A stretch of 13,336 bases of DNA from a virus (lineage: Duplodnaviria > Heunggongvirae > Uroviricota > Caudoviricetes): IMG/VR virus record IMGVR_UViG_2751185957_000009. The stretch is one strand, 5' to 3'. Below the pieces are notes generated by a model. The model saw nothing but the letters and a program-made list of their open reading frames with translations, did not search any database and was not told the origin of the DNA. The position numbers and the translations under genes are program-made. Positions 2,601 to 13,336 of this stretch are shown one piece after another; position 1 is the first letter of the stretch, and each line of letters opens with the position of its first letter.

Positions 2601-3014
2601 CTTGGGATTTTTCACGAGAGTAGTTTAATTGAGCGTGTAACTTCATGATTTAAAATAATGTATATGATTCAACTTTTAAACCGTATAACCAAACGTATAA
2701 CTAAAATGATTTGCTGAAAAAATGCACAATTCAGGGTCGGATTTTCCCGGATGTTTAATTTATAAAAACGAAGCTGGTGGATGATCTGCGTGGTGATTTC
2801 CACCATTCAGAGCAGGGGCGGTCATCATGCCCATGCCATAACAAAAACCCCATATTCGTGGTTTTTCTGTGTTGTGGCTATTCTGCCGTTGCCGTGCTGG
2901 TGGATATTTCCGTTATGGGGATCACCATATCGGCATCATGCCCACCAGCCAGCGCAATTTTGCGCTTTGCTTTAAGTTCAGCAAGTTACCGCGCCGGATT
3001 ACGCCAATGGCTGT

Positions 3015-3194
3015 TTCCGAAAGAATCAACGGGTTAGGCCTTAATGGGCTGCGTGGTAATTATCAGCATCCAGAATATGACGGGTTATGTTTCCGACCTC
3101 CTCAATTTGAGGTTCCCGAAAATATCAACGGGTTAGGCTGGTTTCCCCGATGTTCGCCGCTGGCGAATTTCGAAAATATCAACCAGTTACCGCC
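3015..3194. repeat. Four direct repeats of an ~18-bp motif (AA(A/G)AAT(A/C)TCAACGGGTTAGG-like) with ~50-bp period
   Basis: Copies centred near 3024, 3073 (degenerate), 3119 and 3174. Largely non-coding; the last copy overlaps the 3' end of ORF 3187-3468. Confidence 0.5.
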
Positions 3195-3468
3195 GCAACC
3201 GCTCCGGCTTCTTCCAGTGGTATGTAATTTTCTCCGTTTCCCGATACAGTGCCACGCGGCGATTGTAGGCCAGCATTTCAAGAACGCGGATCCGTATGTT
3301 GCGCATATCCACATCATTAAGCTGGATACCATCACGGCGCATCACCTCAGCAACAACACGCGCATAATTTTCGGCTGTCACGCTGTCCGGCTGCGTGGCC
3401 TGTTCGTCAGTCTGCTGGCTGATTCCACCAGCACGGCGGATTAATCCCAGTATTTCGGCTTCTGTCAT
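3187..3468 (-). CDS. Hypothetical protein (93 aa) at the distal end of the satellite
   Basis: ORF with ATG preceded by AGGTG; non-repetitive, charged/helical composition. No family recognised. Confidence 0.45.
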   Translation of the reverse strand: MTEAEILGLIRRAGGISQQTDEQATQPDSVTAENYARVVAEVMRRDGIQLNDVDMRNIRIRVLEMLAYNRRVALYRETEKITYHWKKPERLRR

Positions 3469-3501
3469 TGTGCACCTATCGTTCTGATTGTCTGGTGTCG
3501 T

Positions 3502-3684
3502 CGGGTCCTTCCTGGAATTATGGACCCGTTACGGGGCGGCGACCTCGCGCGTTTTCACTATTTATGAAAATTTTTCGGGATCCATGTCCGGTTTCTCTAC
3601 AAGTTAACCATATGAAAAATATAAAAACATGCTTTCCATGAACCGGACATGCGCAAAAAACAGACACTAAAACCGGACATCGAA
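3502..3684 (+). other. Lambda-type cos site copy 1: cosN core plus cosB-like array of three AACCGGACAT sites around an AT-rich segment
   Basis: 3531-3578 (ACGGGGCGGCGACCTCGCGCGTTTTCACTATTTATGAAAATTTTTCGG) is near-identical to the lambda left end as I recall it (GGGCGGCGACCTCGCGGGTTTTCGCTATTTATGAAAATTTTCCGG); the 12-nt cohesive-end sequence GGGCGGCGACCT is at 3534-3545. AACCGGACAT occurs at 3641-3650 and 3671-3680 and inverted at 3584-3593. Confidence 0.75.
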
Positions 3685-3748
3685 CCAGTTAACCGAAAGT
3701 GTGCACAAATCACATGCATTGCTGCGAGTGATTAACAAGTTATCGGCT

Positions 3749-4183
3749 TTACTGTTCTGTATCGGCTGATTGCTCCATGCTGGCACGGCGAACGCTTACG
3801 GCATGACGCCACCCAGCCAGAAAGCCAGCCATTTTATTTCGTGCCTTGCTCACATCTTCCGGTGAATAGCCGTAAATCTGCAAACCTTCATCAAATCGAT
3901 GTTCTGTTTCTTCACTGGAGTACTCGTCACGCTCAGATGAAAGCAGCCTGGCAAACATAATTTTTTCCAGCGCACTGGTTTCTACGTGATATCTGATGGC
4001 CTCAAGACGGCTTTTACCTGAAGACCAAAGCAATGTATGCCCGATGTGATAACCGCCAGACTTTCCGCGATCCGCATTAAGATACGGCATCCCCTGTTTG
4101 GTCCATGCGCGAATAGTGGTTCTGTTAACCTTGAAATGTTCAGCTATTTCCTGCTGACTTACAAAACAAGCTTTATCAATCAT
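3749..4183 (-). CDS. Nu1-like small terminase subunit / packaging-specificity protein (144 aa, shorter than lambda gpNu1)
   Basis: The N-terminus (DKACFVSQQEIAEHFKVNRTTIRAWTKQGMPY) parallels the lambda gpNu1 winged-HTH region (NKKQLADIFGASIRTIQNWQEQGMPV). AAGGT Shine-Dalgarno 6 nt before the ATG. Lies between two cosN copies. Confidence 0.7.
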   Translation of the reverse strand: MIDKACFVSQQEIAEHFKVNRTTIRAWTKQGMPYLNADRGKSGGYHIGHTLLWSSGKSRLEAIRYHVETSALEKIMFARLLSSERDEYSSEETEHRFDEGLQIYGYSPEDVSKARNKMAGFLAGWRHAVSVRRASMEQSADTEQ

Positions 4184-4251
4184 AATGTTACCTTAACTGC
4201 ATGGTTAAATATTAATCAAGTGGTGGTGGTGTCACCTTCACGGAAAAACGT

Positions 4252-4316
4252 CATAAATAGCGAAAACCCGCGAGGTCGCCGCCCCGTAACGGGCCATAAT
4301 TCCAGGAAGGACCCGC
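4252..4316 (-). other. Lambda-type cosN copy 2, inverted relative to copy 1, upstream of the Nu1-like gene
   Basis: Reverse complement of 4252-4316 (GGGTCCTTCCTGGAATTATGGCCCGTTACGGGGCGGCGACCTCGCGGGTTTTCGCTATTTATGA) matches copy 1 over ~70 bp and matches lambda cosN including GGGCGGCGACCT (4274-4285 on the minus strand). No AACCGGACAT sites follow it. Confidence 0.75.
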
Positions 4317-4338
4317 AAAAAAGCCGGATTTCTCCGGC
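4317..4338 (-). terminator. Rho-independent terminator ending the capsid operon
   Basis: On the minus strand: GCCGGA-GAAA-TCCGGC followed by TTTTTT, 7 nt after the stop at 4345. Confidence 0.7.
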
Positions 4339-4344
4339 CTTGTC

Positions 4345-4758
4345 TCAGATGGTTTTCAGTATGCGATCGATGTCGCCGTCATCGCCTGGGTTTCTGCCAT
4401 CGTATGCCATGCCAGCTGATACGGTTTGTGGGCTGTGCATGTCCATAAAGTTTTCAAAGGCTGCGGTAAGCTCTGGTGCAACCTTCGGGCGTTCCTGCTC
4501 TATGGTCATGTTCAGGATGTTTTTAGCCGTATCAACATCGATACAAGGCACGTTTGCCATTGCACGCAACAGCGGCTGATAGTCTTTATGCTCATGAAGC
4601 GCCATAATCGCATCAGCGCGCGGCTTGTCCTGCTCTTCCAGTTTGTTGAGTTGATATACGGCCTCGTAGGTTGATAAACCTCTGTCAGCCATTGCCCGCG
4701 CTTCGGCTTTAAATTTACTCGCCAGCGGTAGCGCCATGATGCTTTCATTCGTTGCCAT
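4345..4758 (-). CDS. Hypothetical protein (137 aa), last gene of the capsid operon
   Basis: ORF with GGGGGA Shine-Dalgarno, starts 12 nt after the D-like stop. Acidic C-terminus. No family recognised. Confidence 0.55.
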   Translation of the reverse strand: MATNESIMALPLASKFKAEARAMADRGLSTYEAVYQLNKLEEQDKPRADAIMALHEHKDYQPLLRAMANVPCIDVDTAKNILNMTIEQERPKVAPELTAAFENFMDMHSPQTVSAGMAYDGRNPGDDGDIDRILKTI

Positions 4759-4770
4759 CGTTCCCCCTGC

Positions 4771-5106
4771 TTATCGGGCCAGCGGCTGAACGGATACGCC
4801 AGAACCCGCAAAGGCGGCGCATTTTTTCGCATCGGTGTCGACGCTCTCAGGCCAGTTAACGGCGGCAATATTGAATATCCCCGTCTTGTAACACTGTGCT
4901 GATTTCTGCTTTGACGTGTCCACGAGGTACGAAGTCAGATAAACAGCCTTGCCAGATTCCTGACCATCCCACGGCTTAAACTCGCCATTGTCCACCAGCA
5001 TCAGCGGGGTAAATTCCTGAATAACGCCAGCATCAGCGGCAAAATGTACCAGTGTCGTTGATACCTGCTGACTGCCTGCAAATAACTCAATATATGGAGT
5101 GTCCAT
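4771..5106 (-). CDS. Head decoration protein, lambda gpD homolog (111 aa)
   Basis: Similarity to lambda gpD as recalled: TPLMLVDNGEFKPWDG vs TPLMLDTSSRKLVAWDG; CYKTGIFNIAAVNWPESVDTDAKKCAAFAGSGVSV vs [35 protein letters not shown]. Same length class. GGGGGA Shine-Dalgarno. Confidence 0.85.
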   Translation of the reverse strand: MDTPYIELFAGSQQVSTTLVHFAADAGVIQEFTPLMLVDNGEFKPWDGQESGKAVYLTSYLVDTSKQKSAQCYKTGIFNIAAVNWPESVDTDAKKCAAFAGSGVSVQPLAR

Positions 5107-5117
5107 ATAATCCCCCG

Positions 5118-6173
5118 TTAACCAATTTTGACGGTAACAAATTTGCGAATATCTGCCGGAACCGGCTGCGGTGCGCTGTGTGTCTGCACGTACTCAATCG
5201 CCGGATCGCCGTCCTCAATCCAGTTTTTCGGGTAGTACATGTTTTGCGTTGCGCCCGTTCTTACCGCTTCCTGATCCATAATCGCACCATAGGCCACCAG
5301 CCCTTTATTGTTGGTGTTGCCCAGGACCAGCAAATCAGGCTCAAGGAAATATTTTTCGGTGCCGTCGCTGTCAGTGTATTTGCCGGAATAGACAATAAGA
5401 GCAATATCGCCCAGATAGCCTTTAAAGCTCACCACTTCGCCCAGGTTTTTACAGGCCATTTCTGCGGCGGATTCTGAACCACGGGAAAGATCGTACAGTT
5501 CACGGAATTTTTTAAAGCTGCGTAACGTGCGCCATACCTCAGCGCCCATAATCATGACGTTGGCGGGGCAACCTGCCTGATCTGCGTATAGTTCGATGTC
5601 ATAGATTGGATCGTAAATATCTTTATCATGCTCGGACCATTTTTTGCCGTCGGACTGCTCTATGATGTTTTTTTCCGGTATCTTCCAGTCGATTTCATAG
5701 CGTTCTATGCCTTCGCCCTCAATGATGTTTTTTCCGGTCGTTACCGCATTCACCGCCAGCCATTCCACGCGTGCCTTAATGGCGTTTATCTGGCGGCGCA
5801 TGTTGCCAGTAATCAGGCGCATACGGCGATAGGTAGGGTCGTTAAGCTGTGCCGGATCTTCTCCAGCCATGCGCATGATGGTTTTCGTTGGATCGATTTC
5901 GTGCTTTGGCTTCATGTAGCCAGGTTTGATTGTGCTGGTTTCGTACCCTTTATCGCGCTGAACCTGGCTACCCACCATAGGCGAACAAAACGCCGACATG
6001 GTGACTTCTTCAATGTCCAGGGTATCCAGCATGATGTTTTGCGTGCTGAATGTCGCCACGTTCGGGAAAAACAGCGTGGTAAACAGAGGGCTGAATTTAA
6101 AATCCGCAATATCCCCGCGATTCAGGTACATAAAAAGCTGGTTAGTGTTAAGTGCCGTTGCTTTGCCTGCCAT
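5118..6173 (-). CDS. Major capsid protein, lambda gpE homolog (351 aa)
   Basis: Conserved blocks shared with lambda gpE along the whole length: DFKFSPLFTTLFF, IKPGYMKPKHEIDP, GEDPAQLNDPTYRRMRLI, VSFKGYLGDIALIVYSG, YPKNWIEDGDPAIEY. Roughly 45-50% identity by eye. Confidence 0.9.
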   Translation of the reverse strand: MAGKATALNTNQLFMYLNRGDIADFKFSPLFTTLFFPNVATFSTQNIMLDTLDIEEVTMSAFCSPMVGSQVQRDKGYETSTIKPGYMKPKHEIDPTKTIMRMAGEDPAQLNDPTYRRMRLITGNMRRQINAIKARVEWLAVNAVTTGKNIIEGEGIERYEIDWKIPEKNIIEQSDGKKWSEHDKDIYDPIYDIELYADQAGCPANVMIMGAEVWRTLRSFKKFRELYDLSRGSESAAEMACKNLGEVVSFKGYLGDIALIVYSGKYTDSDGTEKYFLEPDLLVLGNTNNKGLVAYGAIMDQEAVRTGATQNMYYPKNWIEDGDPAIEYVQTHSAPQPVPADIRKFVTVKIG

Positions 6174-6379
6174 TATTCACCCCCATAATTTTTATGCATC
6201 CCAAGCGCCGCAAGTAAATAAGAGCGTACAAGTGAACCTATCGACGGCTCCGGCGTCATCAGCGGATCCAGTCCAGCCGCCACGCCAGCCTCATAGTTTT
6301 TTTTGTGGCGCTGCTTGAGCACCTCCACGATTTCGGGGCTTATGTACACCGAAACACCGCCTTTTTTCTCTTCAGCCAT
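6173..6379 (-). CDS. Hypothetical small protein (68 aa), first gene of the capsid operon, coupled to the E-like gene
   Basis: Its stop overlaps the E-like start (TAATG). AGGAA Shine-Dalgarno. No family recognised. Confidence 0.55.
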   Translation of the reverse strand: MAEEKKGGVSVYISPEIVEVLKQRHKKNYEAGVAAGLDPLMTPEPSIGSLVRSYLLAALGMHKNYGGE

Positions 6380-6407
6380 AGTAAGAAATTCCTCTTCGAC
6401 TAAAAAA

Positions 6408-6463
6408 ATCAGGACTGGATGTTTATCCAGTCCTGATTATAATCAGAATTGCATTTTATGCAA
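6408..6463 (-). promoter_or_regulatory. Putative sigma70 promoter (TTGCAT-16-TATAAT) overlapped by a perfect 13-bp inverted repeat, upstream of the capsid operon
   Basis: Minus strand: -35 TTGCAT (6463-6458), -10 TATAAT (6441-6436). Palindrome ATCAGGACTGGAT-GTTT-ATCCAGTCCTGAT at 6408-6437, followed on the minus strand by seven T. A second small palindrome TTGCATTTTATGCAA at 6449-6463. Confidence 0.5.
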
Positions 6464-6540
6464 TAATATTGAGTTATGTTGCAAATTATGAAATGATTAT
6501 CCCGATCACGAACGCCAGTGCATCCAAAAACCTCATATGC

Positions 6541-6609
6541 AAAAGCCCGATAAGAACCCTCTGACCTTATCGGGCTTTTTTGGGCGCAAAAAAGCCGGAT
6601 TGCTCCGGC
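6541..6609 (-). terminator. Tandem rho-independent terminators after the 74-aa gene
   Basis: Hairpin 1 (6545-6575): 9-bp stem GCCCGATAA/TTATCGGGC flanked by A4 and T6, so bidirectional. Hairpin 2 (6594-6609): GCCGGA-TTGC-TCCGGC with an A6 run, which is a T-run on the minus strand. Confidence 0.65.
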
Positions 6610-6629
6610 TATGTGTGCTGTGTGCTGGA

Positions 6630-6854
6630 TCAGTCTCTGATCTCTTTCAGAAATTCTATCAATGCATCTATCTGTTCAGGATTTACCGCCAGCATTTCAC
6701 CGGATAGAGCACATCTCACAAAACCATGCTGATCCTTTTCAATCAGTGCGCCCGTCTCCAGGAATGCGCGGTAATCATTGATGCTCATCGTCTCCATGTT
6801 GTCAGCATGGTATTTATCACGCTGTTTTAATATCTCATCAAATTTCATCGGCAT
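6630..6854 (-). CDS. Hypothetical small protein (74 aa), stand-alone gene bracketed by terminators
   Basis: ORF with its own upstream intergenic region (6855-6950), terminators on both sides. No family recognised. Confidence 0.5.
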   Translation of the reverse strand: MPMKFDEILKQRDKYHADNMETMSINDYRAFLETGALIEKDQHGFVRCALSGEMLAVNPEQIDALIEFLKEIRD

Positions 6855-6950
6855 TGTTTTTTTCCTCTGTTGTGTCTGTTTGTTTCAGATAGTAACTATG
6901 CCTGACCGTGACGAAAACCCGGTAATGCGCCATACCGTTTCAACTGGTGC

Positions 6951-6972
6951 AAAAAAGCCGGATTTCTCCGGC
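6951..6972 (-). terminator. Rho-independent terminator after the PerC-like gene
   Basis: AAAAAA-GCCGGA-TTTC-TCCGGC, reading hairpin then T6 on the minus strand, 8 nt after the stop at 6980. Same module as 4317-4338. Confidence 0.7.
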
Positions 6973-6979
6973 TGTTTGA

Positions 6980-7252
6980 TTAGCTGTCCTGGTAATTGCG
7001 CCATATTTCATCACCAGCACCATCTATACCCATTTCGGCATAAGTGCGATCGACTGCCTTTTTCAGGTCTCCGAAATTATCCGGCGGCTCCGGTGCCCTC
7101 TGTGCCTTCCTTGAACATTCCAGCCGTCGCATCGTGATGTGATGCCGTTCCTTGTCTGTCTCCACCAGCTGCATGACTTCACCCCATCGCGCCGCCGCCC
7201 TCCGGTAAAAGCCTTTCGCCTCCAGTTCCTCCGCTATGCGGTCATGTACCAT
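6980..7252 (-). CDS. PerC-family transcriptional regulator homolog (about 90 aa; an upstream in-frame start at 7372 is possible)
   Basis: Motif IAEELEAKGFYRRAAARWGEVM matches the PerC-family signature as I recall it (AExLExxGxWRRAAxRW). The ATG at 7252 is preceded by GAGGGGG and lies 11 nt after the SSB stop. Family assignment from memory. Confidence 0.6.
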   Translation of the reverse strand: MVHDRIAEELEAKGFYRRAAARWGEVMQLVETDKERHHITMRRLECSRKAQRAPEPPDNFGDLKKAVDRTYAEMGIDGAGDEIWRNYQDS

Positions 7253-7262
7253 CGTCACCCCC

Positions 7263-7673
7263 TCAGAACGAAATATCATCACCGTAAGGGTCATCGCCTC
7301 CCGCTGGTGGCTGATTACCCTGTGTGCCTGTGGTTTTGCGTCTGTTCCCGCCTGGACGTGCCGCGCGGGCACTGATTACGCTGTCTGCGATAACCTGCCA
7401 GCCCTGCCGCGTTTCTCCGTTCTGTCCGGTCCACTGGCTTACCTGCATCGTGCCGGATACGCTGGCAACATCGCCTTTTTGATGTTTAGCCAGGAAGTCG
7501 GCCTGTTTGCCAAATGCGATGACCGATAACCATAACGTCGCCTGTCCGTCCTGTGCCTGGCTGCATGGCAAAGATACCGCCATACGCGCCAGCGTCATCG
7601 GTGTGCCCTTGCTGGTCTGTTTTACCTGCGGGTCGTCCACCAGCCGCCCGTAAGCGGCTATCTGTGCCGTCAT
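7263..7673 (-). CDS. ssb: Single-stranded DNA-binding protein (136 aa)
   Basis: OB-fold pattern (GRLVDDP..., WLSVIAFGKQADFLAKHQKGDVASVSGTMQVSQWTGQNGETRQGWQVIADSV), Gly/Pro-rich linker and acidic C-terminal tip DDPYGDDISF resembling the SSB DDDIPF tail. Strong GGAGAGGTGG Shine-Dalgarno. Confidence 0.8.
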   Translation of the reverse strand: MTAQIAAYGRLVDDPQVKQTSKGTPMTLARMAVSLPCSQAQDGQATLWLSVIAFGKQADFLAKHQKGDVASVSGTMQVSQWTGQNGETRQGWQVIADSVISARAARPGGNRRKTTGTQGNQPPAGGDDPYGDDISF

Positions 7674-7921
7674 AATTCCACCTCTCCGGTTTTAACGTTG
7701 ATGGTTGTTACCTGTTCCGCTTCGGCAATCTCCCGTTCTGTCAGCGTGGCAAAGTTTGCCGCCGCCGTGGTCATGAATGCGCTTATCAGGTCGGGATGTT
7801 CCTTCGCGTATCCTTCCCGCGTGTGGCGGTCTATCGTTCTGATTGCCACCTTTAAGGTGTGCTCAGTCATGTCTAACGCTTTATATTTTGGCTCTGTTCT
7901 GTCTCTGCGTTTTTGGGTCAT
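7670..7921 (-). CDS. Hypothetical protein (83 aa), coupled to ssb
   Basis: Its stop overlaps the ssb start (ATGA). ATG at 7921 with GAGAGG Shine-Dalgarno. The longer form in the ORF track would start at a GTG inside the iteron array. Confidence 0.5.
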   Translation of the reverse strand: MTQKRRDRTEPKYKALDMTEHTLKVAIRTIDRHTREGYAKEHPDLISAFMTTAAANFATLTEREIAEAEQVTTINVKTGEVEL

Positions 7922-7930
7922 TTCTCGCAA

Positions 7931-8123
7931 CCTCTCACTTTTTCGCCTCACTTTTTCAAGCGTCTCACTTCGTCGCAGTTGGGATTTTCGGTTTTTCTAT
8001 GTGTGTGTTTTATAAGTATTTTTTTACCCCTCACTTTTGAGGATGTATACAGGTCGAAAAGTGAGGGAGAGCGGGCTAATTTTGGCCCTCTTTCTATCCC
8101 CCTCGCTTTTGCTCCTCACTTTT
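7931..8123. repeat. Putative replication origin: at least six CCTCACTTTT iterons around an AT-rich spacer, directly 3' of the replicase gene
   Basis: Iterons at 7934, 7948, 7964 (variant), 8029, 8101 (variant) and 8114, plus one inverted copy at 8057-8066. AT-rich stretch 7991-8027. The last iteron overlaps the replicase stop codon. Confidence 0.65.
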
Positions 8124-9522
8124 ATAGCGGCGCTACATCATCCCCATCGATACTAATAACCCCATCTTTTTCCAGCTTGTACAGCCAGCGCCGGAAGTTT
8201 TTCATTTCATACCCCAGCTTTTTCATGTCATCACGTAACAGCGGGATCGTGCACTTGTCGCCGTTCTGTGTGCGTGAACGGATGCACCCCCATAGCGCGG
8301 TATGGTTTTCCGTCTTGTTCCCTGCCTCCTCGATGCGCTCCAGTTCAACAGGAGGGCGCGGATCATCCACCACCACCAGCGACGTGATTAATTCACCGTC
8401 AGCGTCGGTAAAAAGCTCCACCACGCGTAAGTCATATGCGGCTTCTTTGAGTTCCTCCGCGTCCTTCATTTTGGTGCATGAGATAACCAGCGCTTTGCTT
8501 CCTGCGTCCTCCCTGCGTATCCGGTATTCAGCATCCAGCGAAGCACGAAATGCACTGGAACCGCGCGCGCCTTTCGTCTCATCCTTGCCGGAATGGTGAA
8601 CCACCAGCACCGTGGCCCCTGTGCGTCGTTTCAGTTCGTCACAACCACGGATAAACGCCCCCATATCACGGGAATCATTTTCATCATTCCCACCAAAGCA
8701 ACGCGCCAGCGTATCCAGAATAATCATGCGTACAGGTTTACCCGTTTCCCGCTCCACCTGACGGGCAGCGATAACCATTTCATCAACATCAAGCGGGGCA
8801 GCCGGAAAGATGGGGCGGTTTACCAGATACAGATTTTTCACCTGCTCATCGTGCACAACCTCCCAGGCTTTTACACGACGCGGAACGCCGATACCGCCTT
8901 CACCAACCACATAGAGAACCGCACCATGTGCAACCCTGCGGCCTCCCCACTGGCGACCAGTGGCAACATGGCACGCCCACGATCCGGCAAGGAATGATTT
9001 ATAGGACCCGCTAGCCCCGTATATGCTGCATAGCGATACCGCCGGAATAATCCCCTTAACCACGTAATCCAGTTGCGTGTCGTATCCGGTAGATCCAACG
9101 CTCATCGGTAGCGTGGTTTTTCGCTGGTGGTTTTTTTCTTCCACCGGCTCTTTCCCGCGCACCCGTTCCAGGTATTCGCGCCAGTTCTCCCGCATATGGC
9201 TGTGCATCCCTTCGGGGTAATAATTCGCATCAGTTACACCCGCCGCCGCCAGCTTGTGCGCAATGGCATTAATATTTGATGGCCTGATGTGGCCTGCCTT
9301 GTACAGCCGGACACAATAGCGCCCCTCGTCGATGATTCTCAGGTCTGCCAGTTCATCCAGTTGATCATCAGCCAGCACAACGGGAGGCACATTATCGCCA
9401 GCCAGTCGCCCGTCCTGTTCCTGCCACTGTTTTGCATGTGCCCAGGCATCACTACCCGCAAAAATAATGACTTCGGTCATCTTGTCGTAAGGCTGTTTTT
9501 TTAAGTTCGGTGCGCTTTTCAT
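8122..9522 (-). CDS. Replication protein with RecA-like AAA_25 ATPase domain (satellite replicase/helicase, 466 aa)
   Basis: P-loop-like YGASGSYKSF, Walker B-like MIILD, and the signature VLVVHHSGKDETKGARGSSAFRASLDAEY typical of AAA_25 replicative ATPases. Its start overlaps the upstream ORF stop (ATGA). Confidence 0.8.
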   Translation of the reverse strand: MKSAPNLKKQPYDKMTEVIIFAGSDAWAHAKQWQEQDGRLAGDNVPPVVLADDQLDELADLRIIDEGRYCVRLYKAGHIRPSNINAIAHKLAAAGVTDANYYPEGMHSHMRENWREYLERVRGKEPVEEKNHQRKTTLPMSVGSTGYDTQLDYVVKGIIPAVSLCSIYGASGSYKSFLAGSWACHVATGRQWGGRRVAHGAVLYVVGEGGIGVPRRVKAWEVVHDEQVKNLYLVNRPIFPAAPLDVDEMVIAARQVERETGKPVRMIILDTLARCFGGNDENDSRDMGAFIRGCDELKRRTGATVLVVHHSGKDETKGARGSSAFRASLDAEYRIRREDAGSKALVISCTKMKDAEELKEAAYDLRVVELFTDADGELITSLVVVDDPRPPVELERIEEAGNKTENHTALWGCIRSRTQNGDKCTIPLLRDDMKKLGYEMKNFRRWLYKLEKDGVISIDGDDVAPL

Positions 9523-12094: not shown

Positions 12095-13336
12095 CTACAC
12101 GGCTCGGATACCCCTTTTACCACTGGCGAGGGTTACGCCCGTCGCCGCAGCCTCGACAAATTCGCCCCACCAGCGCATCAGCACGATGCGTTTTTCTATG
12201 TAGTTGCTCCGGTTGTATGCCCGTCTAACTTCGTTGGTGTCGACGTGGGCAAGTGCCGCCTCTATTACGTCCGGCTCGAATCCTTCCTCGTTCGCTGCTG
12301 TGCTGAATATGGCGCGTAATCCATGAGACACCAGCACGCCAGCGAATCCCATACGCCGCAATGCTGCGTTAGCTGTCTGGCTGTTCATCGGCTGCTGTGG
12401 GTCTTTCAGACTTGGGAAAACGTAATTGCGGTGGTGGCTGATTGGTTTCATGGCCTCCAGCACCGCCATAGCCTGACCGGAAAGCGGGATAACGTGATCC
12501 CTGCGCATCTTCATGCGTCCGGCAGGTATCGTCCATTGCTTCGCGTCCAGGTTGATTTCATCCCACCGCGTTGATGACGCTTCGGCGGGACGGGTTACGG
12601 TCAGTAACTGCCATTCAATCAGTAATCTGGTCTGCCGTTCTGTTGCCGATACTGATAAAGCCTGCATAAGCTCCGGCAGCTGTTCGGGGCGGATTGTTGG
12701 CATATGTTTTTTTACAGGTGAGGGAAACGCCTTACGCACATTCATAGCCGGATTGGCATCAATCAGCCCACTGTTGGCGGCGTAATCCATTACCTCATTA
12801 ACGCGCTGTAAAACCCGCTTGAGTGTTTCCAGGTTGCCGCGCTCCTTGATGGGTGTAAGCACTTCAACGAACCTTCGGGCGGTGAGGGTATCTATTGGCG
12901 TGTTGCCGATGAACGGGAATACATATTTATCCAGCGAACGCCAGATGTCTTTAATCGTGTTGGGGGCCAGATTCTGGCTGATTTTCACCTGGTACCATGC
13001 CGCCGCCACATTTTCGAACGTGTTCCCTTGTCTTCGGGCCTCTGCCTCTCGTTTTTTCTTCTCATGGCCCTGCGGGTCAGTTCCGGCACTGATTAACGCT
13101 CTGTACTCGCTACGGCGTTTTCTGGCATCAGCCAGGGAAACATCATCAAGCGATCCAAAACTCAGCAATATTCTTTTTTTGTCCGATGGCCGGTAGTAGG
13201 AAAATCGCCAGAGTTTTGATCCGGACGGTTTGACCAGGAGAAAAAGCCCTCCGCCGTCCTGTAGGGTGTATTCCTTTTCCGCTGGTCTGGCTGCTTTGAT
13301 CTGCACCGTGGTTAATGGGGGTGTTTTTCTCGCCAT
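12095..13336 (-). CDS. int: P4-type tyrosine integrase (413 aa)
   Basis: N-terminal arm-binding domain typical of P4-like integrases (LTTVQIKAARPAEKEYTLQDGGGLFLLVKPSGSKLWRFSYY), C-terminal catalytic region with HGLR and the tyrosine in RRAYNRSNY. Start codon is the last three bases of the window. Confidence 0.9.
   Translation of the reverse strand: MARKTPPLTTVQIKAARPAEKEYTLQDGGGLFLLVKPSGSKLWRFSYYRPSDKKRILLSFGSLDDVSLADARKRRSEYRALISAGTDPQGHEKKKREAEARRQGNTFENVAAAWYQVKISQNLAPNTIKDIWRSLDKYVFPFIGNTPIDTLTARRFVEVLTPIKERGNLETLKRVLQRVNEVMDYAANSGLIDANPAMNVRKAFPSPVKKHMPTIRPEQLPELMQALSVSATERQTRLLIEWQLLTVTRPAEASSTRWDEINLDAKQWTIPAGRMKMRRDHVIPLSGQAMAVLEAMKPISHHRNYVFPSLKDPQQPMNSQTANAALRRMGFAGVLVSHGLRAIFSTAANEEGFEPDVIEAALAHVDTNEVRRAYNRSNYIEKRIVLMRWWGEFVEAAATGVTLASGKRGIRAV

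Follow-up and report, generated by a model that had tools for sequence, protein, structure and literature searches.

The window considered here is the whole 13,336-nucleotide stretch of DNA of the virus record IMGVR_UViG_2751185957_000009 (Caudoviricetes). It is a cos-type phage-inducible chromosomal island (PICI) of the EcCICFT073 family, that is, a phage satellite, integrated next to the yejO gene. The subject of this study is a cassette at 3502–4316, in which the rppA gene lies between two lambda-type cos sites that face each other. Two cos sites and rppA have already been published for EcCICFT073 (Fillol-Salom et al. 2018, 2019), so the feature itself is not new; new here are the phage matches for the second site, cos2, the alternative alleles of this site, the islands with two cos sites and no rppA, and the natural flips of the cassette. 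The cassette is composed of the following parts.

3502–3580, plus strand: left arm of the inverted repeat, with cosQ, cosN (3534–3545) and a lambda-like spacer of about 35 bp; core of the published cos2 (repeat search, lambda alignment and the papers' supplementary sequences, where it is 'CFT073 cos.2 / cos2').
3581–3690, plus strand: predicted cosB, 'type A', with ATGTCCGGTT at 3584–3593, inverted, AACCGGACAT at 3641–3650 and 3671–3680, and an AT-rich spacer, in the layout of lambda R3 (inverted), R2 and R1.
3749–4183, minus strand: rppA (orthologue of c1503), 144 amino acids, encoding a 'redirecting phage packaging' protein that mimics the DNA-binding domain of the small terminase subunit, TerS.
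4103–4243, minus strand: cosB of cos1, the segment swapped into phi80, covering the promoter and ribosome-binding-site region of rppA and the first approximately 80 nt of the gene (primers phi80quimera-cosB-3m/4c, mapped by eye).
4220–4232, minus strand: conserved core ACACCACCACCAC in the cosB of cos1.
4238–4316, minus strand: right arm of the inverted repeat, with cosQ, cosN (4273–4284) and spacer; core of the published cos1 (repeat search, lambda alignment, supplementary sequences).

The repeat search of the window yielded an inverted repeat with arms at 3502–3580 and 4238–4315, about 79 nt each, with 657 nt between them. It was reported as two blocks, 3525–3580/4238–4293 (56 nt, 88% identity) and 3502–3526/4291–4315 (25 nt, 96%), which together form one arm with a single 1-nt indel. 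Each arm contains an exact GGGCGGCGACCT, at 3534–3545 on the plus strand and at 4273–4284 on the minus strand; the chance expectation for this motif with at most one mismatch is 0.04 matches per window, and two matches were observed in none of 200 shuffled sequences. The lambda layout is cosQ-cosN-cosB, the latter consisting of R3, I1, R2 and R1, followed by the Nu1 and A genes. Alignment with lambda cos bears out the kinship suspected in the preliminary description of this DNA, as both copies keep cosQ (GGGTCCT..), cosN and roughly the first 35 bp on its right. Both part from lambda exactly at the start of R3, and a lambda-type cosB, with R3, R2 and R1 of the CGTTTCC type, follows neither of them. 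An R-like array is present after the left copy only, as had been noted from the letters alone. The layout claimed in that description, two inverted lambda-type cos sites bracketing a gene with a TerS-like DNA-binding domain, which is not the lambdoid one, thus stands; its coordinates were right to within a few bases, save that the inner end of the right arm is at 4238, not 4252.

The bracketed gene had been described as Nu1-like, that is, as a small-terminase gene, and in this respect the description has to be corrected. The 144-aa product is 100% identical to the c1503 product of E. coli CFT073, named RppA (PMC6739421), and it matches RppC in PDB (6hlk/6hn7, 'Redirecting phage packaging protein C') at E=5.3e-31. 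The Pfam search with the window RppA gave no match to Phage_Nu1 (PF07471) at E≤0.01 and only weak helix-turn-helix (HTH) matches, whereas TerS of the PhiR12 phages, considered below, matches PF07471 at 1e-18 over its C-terminal part. RppA is without the C-terminal part of Nu1, which has the oligomerisation and TerL-binding functions (TerL being the large terminase subunit), and does not belong to the Nu1 family. The N-terminal winged-helix DNA-binding domain is present, as seen from the RppC homology and the weak HTH matches; the DNA-binding domain of RppC has the TerS fold (PMC6739421). Judged by homology, rppA encodes a satellite protein capturing the helper TerS, not a small terminase.

For EcCICFT073, the presence of two cosN sequences has been reported (ISME J 2018, PMC6092414). 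Each cos cloned alone renders a plasmid transferable by lambda and phi80 (PMC6092414). As for the question of which copy is needed, published deletions show that both are usable: transfer of the island is lower upon deletion of cos1, higher upon deletion of cos2, and absent upon deletion of both (PMC6092414). RppA binds TerS of the helpers lambda and phi80, and the hybrid loses the phage cosB and recognises the cosB of cos1; the terminase is thereby redirected to the island, away from the phage (PMC6739421). Only plasmids with the cosB of cos1 are boosted by RppA, cosB swaps place the effect there, and a phi80 chimera with the cosB of cos1 becomes Rpp-dependent (PMC6739421). The experiments on helper-dependent induction, packaging, transfer and helper interference concern the CFT073 element only, and according to both papers no phage cosB is recognisable in the island (PMC6092414, PMC6739421). 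The main texts of the two papers do not use 'inverted', 'orientation' or 'bidirectional' for cos, and 'opposite' occurs only for the direction of transcription. A literature search for the PhiR12 phages and for later work on cos1 and cos2 found nothing answering the question of the two cos sites.

The supplementary sequences and the primers of the phi80 chimera identify the published cos1 as the right, minus-strand copy of the window, directly upstream of rppA; by the supplementary sequences, the published cos2 is the left copy with the array. This rules out the identification of the array-bearing copy with the essential, Rpp-responsive cos1. The preliminary description implied that the array-bearing copy is the functional one; in fact transfer by lambda and phi80 needs the copy without the array.

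The Rpp-responsive cosB segment (CCGTGAAGGTGACACCACCACC ... CAGAACCACTATTCGCGCATGG) was found at 4103–4243, upstream of rppA and extending into it. For the comparison of islands, 25 IMG/VR loci were fetched through RppA (individual loci are denoted below by L numbers), and the cosB of cos1 is upstream of rppA in every Rpp island examined. Its core ACACCACCACCACTTGATTAA is kept in relatives whose RppA is 83% identical, and the ACACCACCACCAC part of it is retained in a relative with 70% identity. When the core was sought in phages, as a trace of a possible Rpp ancestor, the IMG/VR matches were in PICI contigs only.

The array of the left copy has clear phage counterparts. Window positions 3501–3680 align without gaps, at 92% identity, with the cos of five phages from the searched phage collection, PhiR12_1, PhiR12_2, PhiR12_2_star, PhiR12_4 and PhiR12_5. 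This span covers cosQ, cosN, the three repeat elements and the spacer, the spacing of the elements is the same in the phages, and there the matching stretch immediately precedes Nu1 and A of the phage itself. Among complete E. coli genomes, strains AR_0013 and IAI39 have prophages in which the same array precedes TerS WP_000235436.1 and TerL. What comes after the array in the island is the 3' end of rppA, not the cognate TerS and TerL as in the PhiR12 type. Like in lambda cos, the layout of which (R3/R2/R1) is given in the papers' supplement (PMC6092414, PMC6739421), three short repeats start where R3 starts and the first one is inverted relative to the other two; unlike in lambda, the sequences of the R elements are unrelated to CGTTTCC, there are two copies facing each other, and no terminase genes come next. 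To judge from these matches, a lambdoid phage lineage, referred to here as PhiR12-type, or type A, has the AACCGGACAT array as its genuine cosB.

The array could also be regarded as a binding site of RppA, an operator or a titration site downstream of rppA, rather than a site of terminase. At the canonical cosB position, with equal spacing, it occurs in phages and prophages with a TerS of their own and without rppA, and it is also present in islands that lost rppA (see below), both of which are difficult to explain by RppA binding. It is true that the array is at most 70 bp from the rppA stop codon, that RppA has a TerS-like winged-helix DNA-binding domain, and that the R elements of the island were left undefined (PMC6739421); however, the cosB swaps show RppA acting via the cosB of cos1 and not via that of cos2 (PMC6739421). 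An RppA site at this position is, in our opinion, extremely unlikely.

The site downstream of rppA varies among the islands. It is either of type A or of 'type B', with three GGTTGTTGT/ACAACAACC elements, and type B stands in place of type A in eight distinct islands. The phage-collection search with the type B cosB gave no match beyond cosQ/cosN; its phage context was found by an exact-motif scan of IMG/VR, which yielded 65 loci. Some 43 of these have the motif 250 nt upstream of TerS, followed by TerL, and TerL of the type B loci is mostly 91–99% identical to that of PhiR12, with a few cases of 78–86%. TerS of types A and B are identical at 11 of 62 N-terminal positions (18%) as against 92 of 108 C-terminal ones (85%). 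Such a contrast is classically seen, at the sequence level, where a DNA-specificity domain has been swapped. A swapped specificity domain on a common TerL-binding body is well established for lambda versus phage 21.

The two alleles also occur together. Islands without rppA carry type A and type B cos face to face, and we observed eight distinct sequences of this kind, as well as nine complete E. coli genomes with this form. Examples are L031 (6460–7120) and L032 (3900–4570), both integrated at yejO, as is the window, and also L040, L060, L063, L067, L071 and L082. Remnants of the 3' end of rppA are still present in the rppA-less islands, tail to tail, with the microhomology GGCTG at their junction.

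Sequence exchange is seen both between islands and phages and between the arms of an island. The rare cosN variant GGGCGTCGACCT is present in both arms of the islands L023 and L032 and in the type B phages L079 and L080. The island L104 and the phage L079 come from one IMG genome (2778261447), and both have GGGCGTCGACCT and a rare cosQ variant, single-base indels apart, which suggests that islands track the cos of their co-resident helpers. In the window and in L003, L004, L005, L006, L011 and L022, the cosQ part of the right arm is the left-arm variant CCTGGAATTATGG (3502–3533 versus 4285–4316), and most islands, CFT073 included, have CCGGCATATGGA at this place. This has the look of gene conversion from one arm to the other, and with it the perfect repeat reaches 47 bp in the lineage to which the flipped clone described below belongs. 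Finally, the cassette cos-rppA-cos is 99.4–99.9% identical to those of other islands, while the flanks of the window are only 92–98% identical, and the cassette appears to move between mosaic island backbones. From the cosQ conversion and the conservation of the cassette relative to its flanks we infer that the arms clearly recombine.

All of the approximately 40 cassettes examined are convergent, cosN> ... <cosN, with the cosB sides inward. In lambda, packaging proceeds from cosN through cosB. By this rule, convergent cosN sites imply opposite packaging directions round the island, with the cassette packaged first in each case.

Taken with the phage matches, this arrangement makes it fairly probable that cos2 is a second, Rpp-independent entry point, used directly by the terminase of the phage lineage from which it was copied; the existence of a type A TerS lineage with its own DNA-binding domain makes such a role the most likely one for cos2. 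The right site, cos1 (4238–4316), with its cosB at about 4103–4243, is recognised once RppA heterodimerises with the helper TerS, as the published experiments on the near-identical CFT073 element show, and packaging, if the lambda rules hold, would proceed from cos1 leftwards, with rppA first. A type A TerS, having its own N-terminal DNA-binding domain, would use cos2 directly and package rightwards. With lambda as a helper, cos2 would be only a liability, producing a stray cut 740 bp into the DNA packaged from cos1, and this fits the published gain in transfer upon deletion of cos2. Sister islands would have exchanged the second site for a type B cosB, or lost rppA and kept both A and B. Recombination of the arms, plausibly stimulated by terminase breaks, would flip the cassette without disabling either site. 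Bidirectional packaging, one of the roles offered in the preliminary description, fits this scheme, as the two sites are oppositely directed and the published tests with plasmids and deletions found each of them functional; the phage matches further suggest that they serve different terminases. The role of a decoy cut site, offered there as well, is favoured weakly, by the rise of lambda-mediated transfer upon deletion of cos2, which makes cos2 costly with lambda.

Several points weigh against a second entry point. The role of cos2 is drawn from sequence identity only, and the functional data on cos2 show only a cost, as its deletion increases transfer by lambda and phi80 (PMC6092414). CFT073 holds the array once, in the island, and its resident helper phi4 is therefore without a type A cosB; the cos sequence shown for phi4 in the paper's supplement is of a different kind. 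Lastly, the identity between the island and the phages could reflect passive recombination at cos, not selection for a second entry point.

One may thus suppose that cos2 is a functionless or mildly harmful scar of recombination, linked to rppA and cos1, and that only cos1 matters for the spread of the island. The increase of lambda and phi80 transfer after the loss of cos2 would then need no further explanation, and Rpp-dependent packaging is explained by cos1 alone. However, the double deletion abolished the transfer left after deletion of cos1, so that cos2 is cut and used (PMC6092414), and in all type A islands examined cosN is exact and the three R-like elements are intact, with the exception of one change in L019. 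CFT073 has no type A prophage, and the arms clearly exchange sequence with phages, both as expected of a scar; on the other hand, there is an equally intact second allele that matches another phage lineage, and the islands without rppA and cos1 keep two phage-type cos as their sole packaging signals. On balance, we consider a scar unlikely and prefer the interpretation of cos2 as a second entry point.

The cassette occurs in nature in both orientations. These may be read against two conserved open reading frames of the island that lie outside the arms, and the right arm is also adjoined by a hairpin.

3187–3468, minus strand: 'p93', conserved 93-aa island reading frame beside the left arm; fixed outside marker for the orientation of the cassette.
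4317–4341, minus strand: terminator-like hairpin (GGCCGGAGAAAUCCGGC, then U6) adjoining the outer side of the right arm and ending the upstream capsid-gene operon (folding −18.4 kcal/mol, z = −2.4).
4345–4758, minus strand: 'p137', conserved 137-aa island reading frame beside the right arm; fixed outside marker for the orientation of the cassette.

The hairpin at 4317–4341 is supported by folding, although a simple terminator scan did not flag it. As it ends the capsid-gene operon, rppA is implied to have its own promoter within the cassette; promoter-like hexamers are seen at 4235–4208 and 4208–4179 (consensus match only).

As a query for flipped cassettes we used the segment 3581–4237 reverse-complemented between the same flanks, and searched for it in complete E. 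coli genomes. In 15 genomes it was matched at full length in a single piece, that is, the rppA cassette is reversed between unchanged flanks. Further 38 genomes match this query at 81% coverage; these are unflipped, with the repeat and the inner segment aligning on the other strand, and the count of 83 from the search with the original orientation likewise mixes both orientation states. In L003, the same RppA accession is on the opposite strand relative to unchanged neighbours, and the chromosomal site is as in CFT073. The four flipped loci that were fetched, from Japan, Thailand, China and New Zealand, have the same gene layout and share all but one protein accession. Since the likeness holds for island and chromosomal flanks alike, all 15 flipped rppA genomes represent one clone and one event. 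In the flipped rppA loci, a perfect 47-bp block with cosN is common to the arms, and the exchange occurred inside this block. The other nine distinct type A rppA islands and the eight distinct type B rppA islands are all in one orientation.

Flips are also observed in islands without rppA. In three of them (L036, L043 and L093), the inner segment is 99.6% identical to the reverse complement of that in sister islands, with unchanged flanks. The arms of these three islands share only about 25 bp, CCCGTTACGGGGCGGCGACCTCGCG, which leaves cosN and a few bases on either side as the place of exchange; the exchange point of L093 is 7–13 bp further in. The nearest relative of each flipped rppA-less island is unflipped (99.9%, 99.5% and 98.7% identity over 2 kb of flank), which suggests more than one event, with some reservation owing to the mosaic nature of these islands.

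The arms might accordingly be taken for the boundaries of a programmed invertible switch, toggling the expression of rppA or the direction of packaging within a population. An inverted repeat does bracket a short cassette with a gene and its promoter, but no invertase is encoded in the cassette, where rppA is the sole reading frame, or beside it, where p93 and p137 are without a family match, and the only recombinase in the window is the island integrase, 8 kb from the cassette. Both orientations exist in nature for two types of the cassette, and the unflipped nearest relatives of the flipped rppA-less islands suggest repeated events; yet the 15 flipped rppA genomes are one clone, and none of the remaining distinct rppA islands deviates from the common orientation. 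Besides, the cos sites face inward in both states, so nothing obvious is altered for packaging. We consider a programmed switch very unlikely and reject it as the main explanation, given the lack of an invertase and the fixation of the flipped form in one clone. Of the invertible segment proposed in the preliminary description, the natural polymorphism remains, and the programmed switching does not.

The cassette resembles Hin/Gin/Cin, fimS and the shufflons in being a short segment between inverted repeats that is found in both orientations in natural isolates. Unlike those systems, it lacks a recombinase dedicated to the task, its repeats are sites cut by terminase, its two states do not differ in any obvious phenotype, and there is no evidence of switching within a lineage. 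The flips may well be by-products of recombination between the arms, incidental rather than programmed, and tolerated since in either state the two cos sites still face inward.

A bolder idea is that the convergent pair of cos sites makes the cassette addressable by terminase with no recombinase involved, its arms being tuned either to the RppA-TerS hybrid or to native TerS of type A or B, and that cuts or breaks stimulate flipping and shuffling of the cassette and homogenising of its arms. Cutting both inverted cosN sites would free an inner fragment with identical 5'-GGGCGGCGACCT ends, which could be religated either way. The exchange point in L093, 7–13 bp inside cosN, fits homologous exchange better, and cutting with religation is thus not the sole route. 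This idea seems to us rather doubtful.

The assignment of the window to the EcCICFT073 family is based on both sequence and gene content. Over 1 kb, the region shows 97.8% identity with E. coli CFT073 (1,387,441–1,388,441), and this locus of CFT073 is EcCICFT073. The island genes include an integrase (12095–13336), an AAA_25 replicase (8122–9522), SSB and DUF4222, and the chromosomal autotransporter gene yejO lies on the left side of the island. The PICI context, consisting of an integrase, an AlpA-type activator, an own replication module and the absence of terminase genes, is recognisable, although the match of the AlpA-like reading frame is weak (E=0.0035, below the Pfam cut-off); the family search of the window proteins found neither TerS nor TerL. 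The window shares with EcCICFT073 the two cosQ/cosN cores, the position of the cosB of cos1 ahead of rppA, and the array that follows cos2. The differences are the integration site (at yejO versus beside phoQ), the AAA_25 replicase in place of the DNA primase family protein of CFT073 (L001 13447–15201), and the right arm with the cosQ variant of the left one, which lengthens the repeat.

The window also contains capsid genes similar to D and E of lambda, namely a D-like head decoration gene (4771–5106, minus strand; PF02924, 6e-17) and an E-like major capsid gene (5118–6173, minus strand; PF03864, 3e-51). EcCICFT073 is said to lack capsid morphogenesis genes and to use full-size phage capsids (PMC6092414); the capsid and decoration genes of this island stand despite that statement. 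Between yejO and the last reading frame of the island there are three 27-nt direct repeats GTTTCCGAAAGAATCAACGGGTTAGGC, starting at 3013, 3112 and 3166 (within 3013–3192), 63–89% identical to the first one; they may be arm sites of the integrase or a part of the attachment region.

More distant relatives were seen among the loci as well. L024, L025 and L026 (about 5890–6700 in each), islands from other hosts, have RppA that is approximately 83% identical and a cut-site region that is not lambda-like; even the presumed cosN core is not the same in their two arms (in L025, for example, GGGGGTACGTGTACGCGC versus GGGGGTAGCCATACGCGC). Similar non-lambda cores, together with type B cosB, are present in the phages L047, L050, L056, L081 and L088. 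The IMG/VR contig L027 (59.8 kb) contains at 3600–9200 a PICI that has only one cos, encodes an Rpp of 70% identity, and is inserted in the major capsid gene of a prophage. The truncated E-like gene (8378–9142) is followed by tail genes, and the arrangement fits the published type of 'helper-embedded PICI' (PMC10111431).

Copying of a helper's packaging signal is known for other satellites. SaPIbov5 and the helper-embedded PICI 11capE, the latter sharing 258 bp at 90% identity with the cos region of its helper (PMC10111431), carry the complete packaging signal of the helper and are packaged by the unmodified phage terminase, which is what we propose for cos2. Unlike in these two, here the copied cos coexists with an oppositely oriented, Rpp-dependent cos, and there are at least two alleles, matching two phage lineages. 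Two cos-like sites in one satellite are not confined to this family, since SaPIbov4 from Gram-positive bacteria is another island with two putative cos sites (PMC6092414).

The present results make the published question of the two cos sites directly testable, the more so as the matching phages, the PhiR12 series, are in culture. The second cos has at least two interchangeable alleles and, in the rppA-less islands, can stand alone. The natural flips indicate that inverted cos sites are prone to recombination, which is relevant to cosmid-like vectors and to engineered PICIs; if the cassette were indeed addressable by terminase, DNA could be inverted, and satellites quickly retargeted to new helpers, in a way that is new. 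If cos2 is a second entry point, a single satellite combines reprogramming of the terminase of one helper with mimicry of the cos of another, and thereby has a wider range of helpers. Such a range would matter for predicting the spread of islands that carry virulence genes.

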